NCBI GenBank assembly: GCA_016839785.1
Contig: JAEOTQ010000076.1
Span: 1 to 37,881, forward strand
DNA from: Candidatus Hodarchaeota archaeon
GTDB taxonomy: Archaea > Asgardarchaeota > Heimdallarchaeia > Hodarchaeales > Hodarchaeaceae
DNA length: 37,881 nt
Direction of reading: 5' to 3'
Part shown: piece by piece, positions 3,082 through 34,236 of the stretch
Position numbering within the stretch: position 1 is the first letter of the stretch
Layout: every line of letters begins with the position of its first letter
Translations under genes and position numbers: made by a program
Notes under the pieces: model-generated
Told to the model about the DNA's origin: nothing
What the model saw: the letters and a program-made list of their open reading frames with translations, nothing else
Database searches by the model: none

Positions 3082-4467
3082 TTAGGTAGTTTTACTTATT
3101 TCATTTGTTACAAGCTTATTAACATATTTTACATAATAATCAAGTTTATGTTTAGTATCTGCCTCAGCACGAATGGAAATTACAGGTTCAGTCCCACTTT
3201 CGCGAACTAGTACCCACCCGTCATCAAATTCAGCCCTTACTCCATCGATTGTTATACAATTTTGAGCTTCAGTAAATAGAATGGATTTAACGTTTTCTAC
3301 TATTTTTGATTTAATATTATCATTGCAAGGTATTCTTATTTCATCTGAAGTGGGATAGGAGGGTAATTTTGCAATTATTTGAGATAATGGCTCCTCCCGA
3401 GAGGCAATAATCTCCAGCATCTTCATTGATGAAAATATCGCATCATCAAATCCAAAATAATCTTCCCCAAAATAATAATGGCCACTTAACTCTCCTGCAA
3501 AAATTGCTCCTCTTTTCAGGAGCTTTTCATGAATCCAAGAGTGACCAACACGAGTGAATTCTACTTCAGCACCCAGATTACTTAAGTATTCATAGGTTGC
3601 TCTTGAAGTCTTGATATCAATTAATATCAATCCTTTCGGAACTTTTTCCAGTAAATACGCCCCAAAAAGCATTATAATTTGATCAGGTTTAATTATTGCT
3701 CCTTTTTCATCCACAAAACCCACTCGATCCCCGTCCGCGTCAAAACCAATACCTAGATCGTGAGAAGATTTGTTCATTGATTCAACTATATATTTTAAAC
3801 ATTTTGGCTTGGCAGGATCAGGTATCATAACTGGAAATGTTCCATCGGGGTTGGGATGTAAAGCTTCAACCTGCATTTTTTTGTCTTTTAAGACTTCTAG
3901 AATTGGATAGCATGTTCCATTTCCTATATCCACAACCAATTTTAGCTTTTTTATTGGATGAAAATGGTTCCTTTGATAATTCCAGTATTGTTCCCTGTTA
4001 ACATTTTCTAGTATTGATGTTTGTCCATATGTATTGTTCTTAGTTATCTTATAGTCATTCTGATCCATAATTCTCTTTATCTCTTTGTAAAAATTACCAA
4101 TATGAAATGAGACACCATTTCGATCACAGACTTTAATACCATTATAGTCAATAGGATTATGGCTTGCTGTTACCATAATTCCAAAGTCCACTGAGGAATG
4201 ATTTGCGGATAAGAAATATATTGTAGGAGTTGTACAAATACCAATGTCTTTTACGTTACACCCGACTTCCATTAATCCCAGTGAAAGTGCTGTCTTGATT
4301 ATTGGTGTAGATAACCTAACATCACCACCGATAATGACATTTTTCTGAATTCCGAAGTATGTTCCGAACGCTCTACCGATATTAACTACTGTTTTTAATG
4401 AAATATCCTGAGGAAATTTTCCCCGAATATCATAGGTACGAAAAATATTCTCACTCATTTCCAACAA
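3082..4467 (-). CDS. Phosphomannomutase/phosphoglucomutase (alpha-D-phosphohexomutase)
   Basis: FRTYDIRG, catalytic TASHNP, metal loop DADGDR, GELSGH, VRESGTEP. Confidence 0.95.
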   Translation of the reverse strand: MLEMSENIFRTYDIRGKFPQDISLKTVVNIGRAFGTYFGIQKNVIIGGDVRLSTPIIKTALSLGLMEVGCNVKDIGICTTPTIYFLSANHSSVDFGIMVTASHNPIDYNGIKVCDRNGVSFHIGNFYKEIKRIMDQNDYKITKNNTYGQTSILENVNREQYWNYQRNHFHPIKKLKLVVDIGNGTCYPILEVLKDKKMQVEALHPNPDGTFPVMIPDPAKPKCLKYIVESMNKSSHDLGIGFDADGDRVGFVDEKGAIIKPDQIIMLFGAYLLEKVPKGLILIDIKTSRATYEYLSNLGAEVEFTRVGHSWIHEKLLKRGAIFAGELSGHYYFGEDYFGFDDAIFSSMKMLEIIASREEPLSQIIAKLPSYPTSDEIRIPCNDNIKSKIVENVKSILFTEAQNCITIDGVRAEFDDGWVLVRESGTEPVISIRAEADTKHKLDYYVKYVNKLVTNEISKTT

Positions 4468-31139: not shown

Positions 31140-32978
31140 ATGGATACACAAATGGATTCTACTGATCTCCTTGTCGTTCACCAAAATAGAGTAATTTTCA
31201 GCTCAGGTAAAGGTCTTTTGTCTCAACACTCAAAAATTAGTGCAACTGTTACGCAAGTTCTCACTCTTTTTTCGCAGAAGATTATGGGAGGCGAAAGAAT
31301 TCACTTCATTAGATTTGCTAATCATCGTATGATATTTTTATTTCCCCACGTAAGAAGAACTGATGATCTTGTGGCAATCGTTTTGATCCCTATCGCGAAG
31401 AATGCTCGTCAAGTAGTTCCTACCATGGGAATTGTCTTAAACTTAATAGAGCAATTTCTTTCAGGAGATGTTTTAGATGCCCAAAATAGGCATTTAGATA
31501 CTTTTTATCAGCTTTTAACCTCTCCTGCAGATTCTATCTATGTCATACCACGAACTGGGGAGGGAATGTTATCTGCTTTGGTATTACTTACAGCATTTGC
31601 TCATGATCTTAGATACGGAGTTGAGAGTGTAGTATCAAGGTTGGTGTTCATCGACCCGAATGATACAAGCGACCTTCTATCCGTTATTGAAACTTCCAAG
31701 ACTTCACGAGTTCTATCTTTCACGCCAATTCCTGGGGTCGAGGAAAATGATAATATACTGATCTTTGGTTTGGAATCACCTCTCAAGCAATATTTTTCTG
31801 CAAATCCAGGAGAGCAGGTATATGATGTTCTTAGTAGGATTTTTGGCGCAAATTCAAATACTGCAAAGATGAGAAAGTTCATTGACAATAATGATGCCCG
31901 AGAGATAGCCCAATCCATGGCACTGTTTCCTTCTAGTGAAGATAATTTTATCAGAAGCAATGTATTATTATCAACCGTTATACAACCTGGAAAAGACATT
32001 GTGGTGACAATGTCAGCTCCAGTTATGCATAAAATGCGAGAGCTAGCACCTCCACCACGAGGGGTAGAGCCTACAGAACTCCCCGAACTACAGGAACTAG
32101 TGGTGGAAAAAGATGAGTTACAGACACCATCCTCGACAGGTTTCACCCCTCCAGTGGAAGAAACTGTCATAAAACCTAGCATTGAACTTAATGCGGAACC
32201 TGATGCTATACCGACGAAACAACCAGTAGTTGAACCAGTTATTAAGCGTTCCATCACTCATGAGGCTATAAGTCCCGAAATTACGTCCCAATTACAGAAA
32301 ACCAGAGAGAGTGGATTACAGTATAATTTCGCTGATATCCCAGTTGTTCTGGATACCTCACCCATGACCCTTGATCTCGCACCAAATAATGTTGTACCAT
32401 CTAGTAAATCAAATATTACGGTCAGCTTATTCCACAAACTTAATCAGTTTGAATGTCATATTTCTACATATGGACCAAGACTCGAAAGCATTAAAGACTC
32501 GTTAAAGGACTTAGCTTCAAAGCTTGAAGGAACTTTAGAACTAGGCCATGATTCAGTTTCATTAAAAGTTTCGCATGAACGCGATAAAATTGCTCTACGT
32601 GGAATACTGTGGTTAAGCATTGTTGAATATCTTACTCAAGTAGAAGGGAATATTAAAACTCTATCTTCAAGATTTAACATACCTAGAGAGGGGTCAATTT
32701 TAATCATCCCTCCCAATCGTGACTTTGTTAAAGAGAAGATACCATCAAAATTTAAAACTTTCATTTATGAAAAAGAGATTCGTGAACAGATTGAAACGGA
32801 AGCATTATGGACTCTGGGCAAAGCACACGATGCAATCCTTTCTATGATAATGCAACCACTATATCAGGGTGAAGGAGTTGCGTTTGTTGCCTCAGAATCA
32901 AATCAAGAAATGGAGGAAATAGCTTTATTCTTGTTACTTATATCTGAAATCTGCGGAATCGGTTTTTCACGTTGGTAA
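31140..32978 (+). CDS. Hypothetical protein with a longin-like N-terminus, possibly DENN-like, and a Pro/Glu linker
   Basis: LLVVHQNRVIFS...VTQVLTLFSQKIMGGERIHFIRFANHRMIFL...LVAIVL fits the longin beta-beta-alpha-beta-beta-beta-alpha pattern. The CDS is solid; the domain call is tentative. Confidence 0.65.
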   Translation: MDTQMDSTDLLVVHQNRVIFSSGKGLLSQHSKISATVTQVLTLFSQKIMGGERIHFIRFANHRMIFLFPHVRRTDDLVAIVLIPIAKNARQVVPTMGIVLNLIEQFLSGDVLDAQNRHLDTFYQLLTSPADSIYVIPRTGEGMLSALVLLTAFAHDLRYGVESVVSRLVFIDPNDTSDLLSVIETSKTSRVLSFTPIPGVEENDNILIFGLESPLKQYFSANPGEQVYDVLSRIFGANSNTAKMRKFIDNNDAREIAQSMALFPSSEDNFIRSNVLLSTVIQPGKDIVVTMSAPVMHKMRELAPPPRGVEPTELPELQELVVEKDELQTPSSTGFTPPVEETVIKPSIELNAEPDAIPTKQPVVEPVIKRSITHEAISPEITSQLQKTRESGLQYNFADIPVVLDTSPMTLDLAPNNVVPSSKSNITVSLFHKLNQFECHISTYGPRLESIKDSLKDLASKLEGTLELGHDSVSLKVSHERDKIALRGILWLSIVEYLTQVEGNIKTLSSRFNIPREGSILIIPPNRDFVKEKIPSKFKTFIYEKEIREQIETEALWTLGKAHDAILSMIMQPLYQGEGVAFVASESNQEMEEIALFLLLISEICGIGFSRW

Positions 32979-32990
32979 GACAAGACTAGA

Positions 32991-33109
32991 GGAGCTTTTC
33001 AATAGAGACTGCTAATGTATCGGTCAGCAGAGGCCTTCCCGTTGCGATGAAGCTGATTACCGTCCGGCTTAGCAGAAAAGCGTTACGCTGATACCTTTAT
33101 TGAAGTTCC
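32991..33109 (+). ncRNA. Structured RNA with a K-turn/K-loop; candidate H/ACA pseudouridylation guide
   Basis: GC-richer island. Outer stem 32991-33007/33095-33109. CTGCTAA 33009-33015 pairs with TTAGCAG 33069-33075. Upper stem GGTCAGC/GCTGATTACC. K-turn AGA (33029-33031)/GATGA (33046-33050). AAA at 33076. Confidence 0.55.
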
Positions 33110-33372
33110 GGTTAATTTATTTTACTTTCGATAAGGAAAATGGTTTAGAATTAACATTATTTCTGCAATAATTGTATCTAAAGTGAATTCCCTACCATTG
33201 AATTAAGTTTATTAGAATCAGGAATTTTGTTTGTTAGGAAAGATAAAAAAGAGAAGACTTGGACAAAGATCACAATTAGTTCGATTTTCAAGTGATTTGA
33301 AATCTCTTTACCAATCTCTCAAATAGAGTAGATTTAATCCAAAATCAATAAAAAACTGTAAGAAGTGAAAAT

Positions 33373-34236
33373 ATGAAGAATTGGCTTATTACAAAAAGAA
33401 CAAAAAGAGGGATAAGCCCTGTAATCGCCACGGTTTTATTAATTGGACTTGTTGTAGTAGCTGGATTAGGAGTAGCGTTAGTGATGTTTGGTACCATTAA
33501 TACTCCCGATCCATTAGGGGTTGAAGTTGTGGCCATATCTTCTTTCGAAACCACTGATATTGATATTAATGTTGACAAATTTGATGTAACCCTCCAGAAT
33601 ACCGAAAGAACAAATGTTGAAATTTCTTCGGATGCATTTTCACTCCTTTATTTCAATCGTACGCCAATTCTAGGATGGTATATGGATCAATCAAAGATTT
33701 TTTTATCAGGTTTATCCATAGTAACGATTCCTCTTACTTGTGATAATACAGTCGATCGAAATGAACTAGTACCTGGGAATGATACTATTTACATTGATGT
33801 AACTATTTTTCCAGAAGGTAAGACAAGCCCAAAGTCTGCAAGAACATTCCGATCTAATATATTGACTATTGGAGATACCTATGGTCCAGTTTCCCTCGTT
33901 TCATTGAATCCATTATCGACTTTCAGTCAAGAAGGATTCACAATGAACTTTACTGTTACAAACAATGGAAGTACGGATCTTAATTTACGTTTAGATTTTT
34001 CAACAGCTTCTTCAAGTGGATTATTCTTCATTGTGAACGGTATTAACACTAGCTTGCATGTTTTCATACTGGAAAAGCTAGAATCAACTTCCTTTCAAAG
34101 TGATCTTTTCCAATTAAATTCCTCTGACCTGACAAGCCCTGGAGTACCTTATTTGATTTTTGTTACATTGTCTGATAATGATAATGGAAACTTCCTTGCA
34201 ATAGAAAGTCTATCGGTGACATATGAACCGATCTAA
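33373..34236 (+). CDS. Archaeal type IV pilin-like protein (class III signal peptide)
   Basis: RTKRG|ISPVIATVLLIGLVVVAG followed by beta-rich domains with N-glycosylation sequons. Confidence 0.88.
   Translation: MKNWLITKRTKRGISPVIATVLLIGLVVVAGLGVALVMFGTINTPDPLGVEVVAISSFETTDIDINVDKFDVTLQNTERTNVEISSDAFSLLYFNRTPILGWYMDQSKIFLSGLSIVTIPLTCDNTVDRNELVPGNDTIYIDVTIFPEGKTSPKSARTFRSNILTIGDTYGPVSLVSLNPLSTFSQEGFTMNFTVTNNGSTDLNLRLDFSTASSSGLFFIVNGINTSLHVFILEKLESTSFQSDLFQLNSSDLTSPGVPYLIFVTLSDNDNGNFLAIESLSVTYEPI

Follow-up and report, generated by a model that had tools for sequence, protein, structure and literature searches.

Our analysis of a contig of 37,881 nucleotides (nt) from a Candidatus Hodarchaeota archaeon (GenBank assembly GCA_016839785.1, contig JAEOTQ010000076.1, positions 1 to 37,881 of the forward strand; the window hereafter) indicated that a short RNA encoded directly behind a protein-coding gene is probably an H/ACA-type pseudouridylation guide, stored in the manner of an intron, excised through a motif of the bulge-helix-bulge (BHB) type, circularized, and aimed at the helix-24 loop of 16S ribosomal RNA (rRNA). 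The stretch that drew attention to it spans 119 nt (32991-33109, + strand). The parts of this reading differ in strength. It is virtually certain that the stretch specifies a real, structured RNA, and excision at a BHB motif or a circular form is highly likely; membership among the H/ACA ribonucleoprotein (RNP) RNAs is likely, and the helix-24 loop is favored as the target with somewhat better than even probability. The window corresponds to contig C27 of genome bin G000 (4.04 Mb in 248 contigs, 84.5% complete), and other genomes and contigs are named by such handles only where they must be told apart.

According to the proposed pathway, the transcript would fold into a canonical BHB consisting of an outer helix, a helix of 4 base pairs (bp), two 3-nt bulges, and an inner helix, P0. 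The archaeal splicing endonuclease would cut after 32989 and after 33115, and RtcB would join the ends into a ring of 126 nt, a step for which one permuted RNA contig speaks. In such a ring, P0 would be capped by a 7-nt loop and would close a three-way junction bearing a small hairpin and the guide hairpin with its lower stem, pocket, upper stem, kink-turn (K-turn), and A-N-A box. L7Ae would bind the K-turn, the pocket would pair with the helix-24 ('790') loop of 16S rRNA, GUCCGG(C) with (G)CCGGAU and GUAUC with GAUAC, leaving U-A unpaired, and pseudouridine would be formed at the first unpaired U.

By folding energy alone, the RNA was not beyond chance: the 119-nt stretch gave a z of -1.94, with 6 of 200 shuffles folding as well, and the 78-nt guide hairpin was not singled out at all (z = +0.33). 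Comparison among genomes was far more telling. A DNA search recovered the RNA in 20 of 21 congener genomes (E <= 7.7e-15) and did not find it in 19 genomes from other genera (best E, 0.17); in the remaining congener, G005, the contig breaks off inside the upstream host gene. A model of the full structure (R1) returned one match per genome, the window genome included, which makes the RNA single-copy; over 83 genomes of the class, it matched the window genus alone, in 21 of 83 under stricter filters. In the structure alignment, which comprised 21 sequences (the window genome and 20 congeners, to which counts out of 21 refer below) and 33 counted pairs, 91.6% of the cells paired, compared with 25.3-55.3% when partners were slid by 1-3 columns. 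Sixteen of the 33 pairs changed on both sides, against a shuffled mean of 7.7, and 0 of 500 shuffles attained the observed value on any of five covariation measures. The GC content also set the RNA apart as an island (0.48-0.49, against 0.24-0.30 in the surrounding spacer). A search of the whole window yielded no Rfam family at its gathering score, and at E <= 10 the region 32900-33400 gave four weak, irrelevant matches, none over the guide hairpin or on the + strand; the nearest, sn2417 (- strand, 33079-33166), scored 15.5 bits against a gathering score of 80. A sequence-only reading of the window had described an unannotated K-turn RNA with H/ACA geometry, and had named structural conservation among relatives, a discrete transcript, and a match to a different Rfam family as points on which, along with the 16S sequence of the host, it would stand or fall. 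The structure proved to be kept by compensatory changes, a discrete RNA contig exists in a metatranscriptome run (X4), and no different family was matched.

All stems, loops, and boxes named in that reading were recovered when the sequence was reread, and its two ends, 32991 and 33109, turned out to be the exact ends of a further outer stem, P0. The 5' strand of P0 (32991-33007), which doubles as the inner helix h' of the BHB, forms 15 pairs with the 3' strand (33095-33109), and 11 of these change on both sides across the genomes. Enclosed by P0 is the guide hairpin, whose lower stem, P1, joins CUGCUAA (33009-33015) to UUAGCAG (33069-33075). This stem measures 7 bp in the window genome and 8 bp in 15 of 21 genomes, with both-side change at 1 of 8 pairs, a swap of U-A to A-U in 5 of 21, and U.G in 5 of 21; since G.U pairs such as the UG found in 5 of 21 genomes at one lower-stem pair would become A.C on the other strand, the RNA is placed on the + strand. 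The pocket is bounded by a 5' strand, UGUAUC (33016-33021), of which GUAUC (33017-33021) is the putative 5' guide, and by the putative 3' guide, GUCCGG followed by C (33062-33068). In the upper stem, P2, the 5' strand GGU + CAGC (33022-33028) faces ACC (33059-33061) and GCUG (33052-33055), and the 3' strand (33052-33061) carries a bulge, AUU at 33056-33058, that measures 3 nt in 17 genomes, 2 nt in 3, and 1 nt in 1. Three of the seven upper-stem pairs change on both sides, with compensatory changes in both parts, and covariation across the 21 genomes thus indicates that both parts truly pair. The K-turn or K-loop occupies 33029-33051 (AGA at 33029-33031 and GAUGAA at 33046-33051): G33030-A33031 face G33049-A33050, G33046, A33047, and U33048 form the 3-nt loop, 33029 and 33051 are the variable 3n/3b positions, and 33032-33045 make up the apical loop. 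Directly 3' of P1 lies the ANA box, AAA (33076-33078), placed 14 nt from the first base of the 3' guide (G33062), followed by the small hairpin (AGCG-UUA-CGCU, 33079-33089), a genus-specific element with 3 pairs kept in 21 of 21 genomes, one of them with change on both sides. Together with a G(A/U)A(A/U)(A/U)C-like spacer, this hairpin makes up the interval (33079-33094) that separates the ANA box from the 3' strand of P0; both are conserved in the genus and absent from its sister genera, G022 and G023. A box C/D small RNA (sRNA) was ruled out on anatomy by inspection of sequence and alignment, the RNA having a single apical K-turn in a hairpin and no terminal C/D pair; the weak Rfam C/D matches lay on the opposite strand with bits far below the gathering score.

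The K-turn consensus used for comparison has tandem G.A pairs and a 3-nt bulge. In our alignment, the letters GA (33030-33031) and [A/G]AUGA (33046-33050) were invariant in 21 of 21 genomes, with the 3n/3b neighbors varying freely; the K-turn is assigned here as a sequence pattern, from which L7Ae binding is predicted. The box reads AAA in 18 genomes, AUA in 2, and AGA in 1, and as only the middle base varies between an invariant first and third A, it fits the expectation for an ANA box. Lower stem and 3' guide sum to 14 nt in all 21 genomes (G33062-G33075, then A33076). Whereas the 5' guide occurs in three variants (GUAUC in 16 of 21 genomes, AUAUC in 4, AAAUC in 1), the 3' guide reads GUCCGG in every one of the 21. 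The pocket size (5-6 + 6-7 nt) falls inside the 5-11 nt per strand expected of an archaeal H/ACA internal loop, and the lower stem reaches the expected minimum of 7 bp. Functional Pyrococcus guides place the box 14-15 nt away from their target and depend more on the 3' guide than on the 5' guide (PMC2377435); the same is said of spacing and of the relative importance of the two guides in Sulfolobus islandicus (PMC11077068), and proteins of Pyrococcus furiosus accepted foreign guides in the latter study. The 14-nt spacing and invariant 3' guide of our RNA agree with these rules. The layout put forward by the sequence-only reading, with its K-turn, its box 14 nt from the top of the pocket, and its 3' guide, has therefore gained support from the comparison.

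That reading had recognized neither the BHB nature of the outer stem nor the circular form of the RNA. Our BHB interpretation was prompted by RNA data, namely four metatranscriptome runs examined as contigs (X2, X4, X5, and X6), in which stretches lacking contig cover count as evidence neither way. The outer helix pairs GGUAAGACAA (32974-32983) with UUAUUUUACU (33117-33126) at 9 of 10 ungapped positions. Next to it, the central 4-bp helix joins GACU (32984-32987) to GGUU (33110-33113) with 4 of 4 pairs in 21 of 21 genomes, flanked by bulge 1, AGA (32988-32990; predicted cut, 32989/32990), and bulge 2, AAU (33114-33116; predicted cut, 33115/33116). The central helix stood at fixed offsets, and both bulges measured 3 nt, in all 21 genomes, the second pair of the helix being A-U, G.U, or G-C. 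The splicing endonuclease cuts after the second bulge base on each strand, a rule that agreed with the transfer RNA (tRNA)-Lys intron of the same genome, where the top match of a BHB finder run on the GC islands equaled the 60-nt intron called by aragorn. Applied to our element, the rule predicts an RNA of 126 nt, probably circular (32990-33115), that starts with AGG and ends at 33115, and these are the joint positions of a contig from run X4. This contig of 155 nt is circularly permuted, reading 33021-33115, then 11 unaligned letters beginning AGG, then 33002-33050, at a depth of 22.5 compared with 7.13 for the host-gene contig. Its first and last 30 nt are identical, as they should be when a closed cycle is assembled from 31-mers, and this points to a circle of ~125 nt. 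The circular fold is predicted to preserve the structure of the linear fold. At the 3' foot of the element, the motif UUCCGGU(C/U) (33108-33113; about 3488-3495 of locus L088 in G022) is common to the window genus and G022 while the rest of the RNA differs; it corresponds to the end of P0 plus the central BHB helix, and its conservation exceeds what pairing would need.

The outer helix itself gave a mixed picture. Outer duplexes ranged from -5.2 to -18.2 kcal/mol across the 21 genomes, with means of -11.7 for cognate and -8.9 for non-cognate partners. Since the 5' strand of this helix usually coincides with the conserved end of the host open reading frame (ORF), non-cognate partners pair nearly as well. 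Three genomes in which the element lies farther from the ORF or differs had distinct and specific outer helices (cognate versus non-cognate, -13.2 versus -3.5 in G017, -13.1 versus -5.0 in G001, and -18.2 versus -9.2 in G011), and specific covariation of this helix was clear only in these three.

Several observations bear against excision and circularization. The cognate outer-helix partner is among the two best in only 6 of 21 genomes. The circle is known from one assembled contig of one run, derived from a relative with 8 differences in 95 nt, and that contig has 11 junction letters that defied alignment. Run X2 yielded a contig (33065-33310, depth 2.2) that is uncut across the 3' cut site, and no ligated-exon contig was seen in the four runs; the contigs of runs X5 and X6 cover neighboring parts only and are uninformative on processing. 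A stable linear RNA could account for such data if the BHB likeness and the permuted contig were artifacts, of repeat assembly or of template switching by reverse transcriptase at the base of the long stem. That the joint appeared in one contig of one run, that A-rich letters flank it and could favor template switching, and that the contig of another run crosses the cut site all suit this view. We nevertheless regard a linear RNA as very improbable, as the joint coincides with the two positions that the BHB rule gives independently, the contig forms a closed cycle through an overlap of exactly 30 nt at a depth of 22.5 and does not branch into the flanks, the 4-bp helix and the pair of 3-nt bulges recur in 21 of 21 genomes with compensatory change, and the element is single-copy in every genome.

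The host gene encodes a conserved protein of 612 amino acids (31140-32978, +), for which no Pfam family, PDB relative, or Atlas relative was found. Its stop codon (TAA, 32976-32978) is followed after 11 nt by the 119-nt RNA stretch, and its last codons and stop codon form part of the BHB outer helix. In 21 of 21 copies of the genus, the RNA stands directly 3' of this same gene, whose orthologues are limited to the window genus and the sister genera G022 and G023 of the same order (24 of 83 class genomes). This association invites the view that the element is chiefly a BHB intron or 3' untranslated region (UTR) element, by which excision or an L7Ae-bound K-turn would control the stability or expression of the 612-amino-acid gene, the likeness to H/ACA RNAs being incidental. 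Such control would suit the placement of the last codons and stop codon inside the outer helix in 19 of 21 genomes and the tie of the RNA to one gene in three genera; BHB introns are also known in mRNA regions, namely the cbf5 mRNA and the 5' UTR of HVO_1309 (PMC7714728). In G017, G001, and G023, however, the element lies 35-130 nt past the stop codon and has a different outer helix, so that a link to the stop codon is not required. A pure intron would also fail to account for a pocket strand that does not vary, for the A-N-A pattern, for a spacing of 14-15 nt kept in three genera, and for the ACA boxes of G022 and G023. Control of the host gene as the chief role thus appears decidedly improbable. 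Downstream of the RNA, the product of a gene at 33373-34236 (+) begins like an archaeal type IV pilin, both in its signal and in its N-terminal helix, with a sub-threshold match to Pfam Pilin_N (18.1 bits, cut-off 25.2); this gene is not 3' of the RNA in every congener.

Synteny led to an RNA of the same layout behind the orthologous host gene in both sister genera. The G022 and G023 copies have a P1 of 8 bp, a P2 of 6 bp, a GA...AUGA K-turn, and a 6-nt 3' pocket strand, and they carry an ACA box at 14 nt in G022 and at 15 nt in G023; judged from these sequence features, they strengthen the H/ACA identity of the locus. In G022, the BHB is a textbook motif (finder score, 20; outer helix, 11 bp; inner helix, 6 bp). 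That of G023 was read by eye: RNAfold gives an outer helix, a 3-bp CAG/CUG helix, and a 3' bulge AAA, and the strict finder missed it because no contiguous inner helix follows the bulge.

The protein machinery that such an RNA would need is largely encoded. Profile searches of the genome found Cbf5 (423 bits), Nop10 (51.6 bits), and L7Ae (92 bits), all above curated cut-offs, along with two paralogues of the splicing endonuclease EndA (tRNA_int_endo, 99.4 and 64.8 bits) and RtcB in two pieces (366.6 and 225.1 bits). The EndA paralogues lie at G000:C116:2837-3091 and G000:C222:7427-7687, in frames of 183 and 217 amino acids; the gene on C222 shares its contig with cbf5, and that on C116 with nop10 and a weak Gar1-like match. 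Two paralogues suggest a heteromeric enzyme, a type of splicing endonuclease said to accept relaxed BHB motifs (PMC5829648). The RtcB pieces map to G000:C169:3109-3975 (profile positions 1-284, running to the contig end) and G000:C135:49341-49904 (profile positions 245-426), and the division could reflect a break in the assembly, a gene that is itself split, or an insertion of the intein type.

The target sequence was taken from congeners because neither 16S nor 23S rRNA is assembled in the window genome. Of the 22 genus genomes, 4 contain a 16S sequence; the helix-24 loop reads GAGCCGGAUUAGAUAC in each of them, and the pocket pairs with it over 6-7 + 5 bp in all four. The pairing proposed by the sequence-only reading (GUCCGG with CCGGAU, GUAUC with GAUAC, UA unpaired) is therefore borne out in these congeners, the 16S of the host itself being unassembled. 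We scanned the 16S of G002 and G017 and the complete 23S of G001 with the canonical geometry, in which pairing with the 3' guide extends to the base just ahead of the target U, U-N stays unpaired, and the 5' guide then pairs. The helix-24 loop emerged as the sole site with at least 9 bp, at 7 + 5 pairs (12 bp) including one G.U, and the runner-up had 8 pairs. Chance controls over 16S and 23S used the genus-wide 5 + 6-nt pocket in 3000 trials each: shuffled pockets attained 11 of 11 pairs in 112 of 3000 trials, or 1 of 3000 with at most one G.U, and random pockets did so in 79 and 5 of 3000, respectively. Across 8.08 million positions of the assembled genome, the strict target motif occurred 0 times, and 61 wobble-rich matches were found, mostly inside genes. 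The predicted target base is the first unpaired U, U726 in the 16S of G002, which we take to be about U789 in Escherichia coli numbering; the neighboring U788 would be the alternative should the G.U pair not form. In eukaryotes, the modified base of helix 24 is presumably that neighboring U (E. coli 788), position 789 being a C there by the alignment that we assume. The pseudouridines listed for helix 24 include yeast Psi999 (guided by snR31), human Psi1056, and Arabidopsis Psi1000 (PMC2794176), as the sequence-only reading had held for Psi999. As a separate observation, the 16S of G008 (L031, G008:C9:1695-3919, - strand) is 2225 nt long, compared with 1474-1476 nt in G002 and G017, and diverges immediately past GAUAC in the helix-24 loop, so that an insertion, probably an intron in the rRNA, begins where the predicted guide-target duplex has its 3' edge.

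A second group of findings detracts from the guide function and its target. The upper stem, with 3 + 4 pairs, a non-standard 3b.3n layer, and a 1-3-nt bulge, breaks the rule derived from Pyrococcus, where stems of 5-6 bp work, 4 or 7 bp failed, and H2 never had more than one bulged base (PMC2377435). The box in the window genus is AAA, AUA, or AGA and in no genome ACA, and the 5' guide is one pair short in 4 of 21 genomes and two pairs short in 1. Gar1 was found only below threshold (19.8 bits, cut-off 29.3), with similar weak matches in 14 of the 22 genus genomes. The RNA matches nothing in Rfam, and its supposed substrate is missing from its own assembly. The 16S sites listed for Pyrococcus abyssi (PMC2377435) and S. 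islandicus (PMC11077068) do not include the helix-24 loop, although the supplements of these papers may list more. Finally, the pockets of G022 and G023 differ from that of the window genus, so that guide specificity is not conserved across the locus; on the rRNAs of the window genus they had no clear target, only weak and inconsistent candidates (the 16S U1159 and 23S U2553 regions), and the G022 and G023 assemblies contain no rRNA.

Such findings leave room for a BHB-excised H/ACA-type RNP RNA with another substrate (23S rRNA, a tRNA, or an unassembled RNA), or with a role as a non-modifying chaperone or processing factor. This alternative draws on the upper-stem geometry beyond the range that works in Pyrococcus, the decay of the 5' guide in 5 of 21 genomes, and the different pockets of the positional homologues in G022 and G023; the host rRNAs and most of its tRNAs are moreover unassembled or unrecognized, and many predicted targets of archaeal H/ACA RNAs lacked experimental confirmation (PMC11077068). 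On the other side, chance seldom yields a full-pocket match with one G.U (1-5 of 3000), the helix-24 loop is the only match of at least 9 bp in 16S and 23S, the strand of greatest weight, the 3' guide, is invariant, and the 14-nt spacing fits exactly the helix-24 register. On balance, we consider a different substrate or a non-modifying role unlikely and retain the helix-24 loop as the favored target of the excised guide.

Searches for siblings of this RNA returned little. Over the whole genome, a strict H/ACA descriptor gave 260 K-turn placements, all of low GC and unconvincing, and a relaxed descriptor applied to 179 GC islands returned only our RNA and a tRNA-like stretch. Among the matches of the BHB finder, C222:3142-3234 was discarded since it overlaps a tRNA on the other strand, and G000:C139:12392-12526 (- strand) was rejected as a sibling, being found in 0 of 21 congeners. 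The latter, 135 nt long with a folding energy of -42.9 kcal/mol and a nearly perfect BHB-like frame, had no Rfam match and may be strain-specific or a product of chance. As for the tRNAs of the genome (for example, at C137:68246-68379 and at C235:11914-12126), aragorn recognized only 13 genes in the 4.04 Mb, of which 6 have introns, and at least one GC island resembles a tRNA interrupted by further inserts, which suggests that many tRNA genes of this genome carry introns missed by standard tools. Heavily interrupted tRNA genes in Asgard archaea have reportedly been described in a preprint, in agreement with the few tRNAs recognized here.

Among known systems, the classic archaeal H/ACA sRNAs (Pab21, Pab35, Pab40, Pab91, Pab105, Pab160, and Pab19 of Pyrococcus; sR115 and sR435 of S. 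islandicus) likewise have a single hairpin with a lower stem, a bipartite pocket, and a K-turn or K-loop, an ANA box 14-15 nt from the target, a 3' guide that is more conserved and important, and a target in an rRNA loop (PMC2377435, PMC11077068). They have 5-6 upper-stem pairs, whereas our RNA has 7 with a 1-3-nt bulge, a non-ACA box, 5' and 3' ends paired in a 15-bp stem, BHB flanks, and an apparent circle, and its predicted helix-24 site is absent from the archaeal sites listed in the same two papers. In the box C/D sRNA of the Haloferax volcanii tRNA-Trp intron, a K-turn guide is likewise located in a BHB intron, released by the endonuclease, and circularized (PMC7714728). That guide directs 2'-O-methylation of the very tRNA in which it resides, in contrast to an RNA of the H/ACA type that lies behind a protein-coding gene and is seemingly aimed at 16S rRNA. 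The BHB introns in the cbf5 pre-mRNA of Crenarchaeota and in the HVO_1309 5' UTR share the setting in a protein-gene transcript and the circular product (PMC7714728). They lie in an ORF or 5' UTR, and no guide RNA is reported in them, whereas our element starts 11 nt past a stop codon and its content would be the functional product. A circular isoform of an archaeal H/ACA-type RNA has been seen by RNA sequencing for sR109 of Sulfolobus solfataricus (PMC3326292), as a minor form with few reads, and the terms BHB and bulge-helix-bulge occur 0 times in that paper; sR109 is an atypical guide that has neither a lower stem nor an ACA (PMC11077068). Eukaryotic intron-encoded H/ACA small nucleolar RNAs (snoRNAs) are likewise hosted by protein genes and released by processing, and the same rRNA loop is targeted by snR31 (PMC2794176), but the eukaryotic RNAs reside in spliceosomal introns, are trimmed exonucleolytically, and have two hairpins with H and ACA boxes and no K-turn. 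We treat the relation between our RNA and these eukaryotic snoRNAs as a likeness and claim no homology.

In archaea, both H/ACA guides and BHB splicing are familiar on their own; it is their combination that appears to be new here. The BHB substrates listed in a passage of a review comprise only tRNAs, rRNAs, the cbf5 mRNA, and one 5' UTR (PMC7714728), and our literature search, in which several queries could not match the term 'H/ACA', returned no report joining an H/ACA guide with BHB splicing. If the proposed reading is true, a guide RNA would join the substrates of the splicing endonuclease, a circular H/ACA RNP RNA with an internal box would exist, the upper-stem rule derived from Pyrococcus would be relaxed, and a new archaeal pseudouridine would be predicted in a functionally central loop of 16S rRNA. 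The Hodarchaeales are the archaeal order placed closest to eukaryotes, and their position among the Asgard archaea gives the finding a bearing on how guide RNAs came into the introns of protein genes. A guide released as a ring from a protein-gene transcript in this order might, as a speculative and rather improbable extension, be an archaeal counterpart, possibly even a forerunner, of the way in which eukaryotes encode snoRNAs in the introns of host genes. The helix-24 loop targeted by this RNA would then be the very one in which a pseudouridine is conserved from yeast to human and plants.

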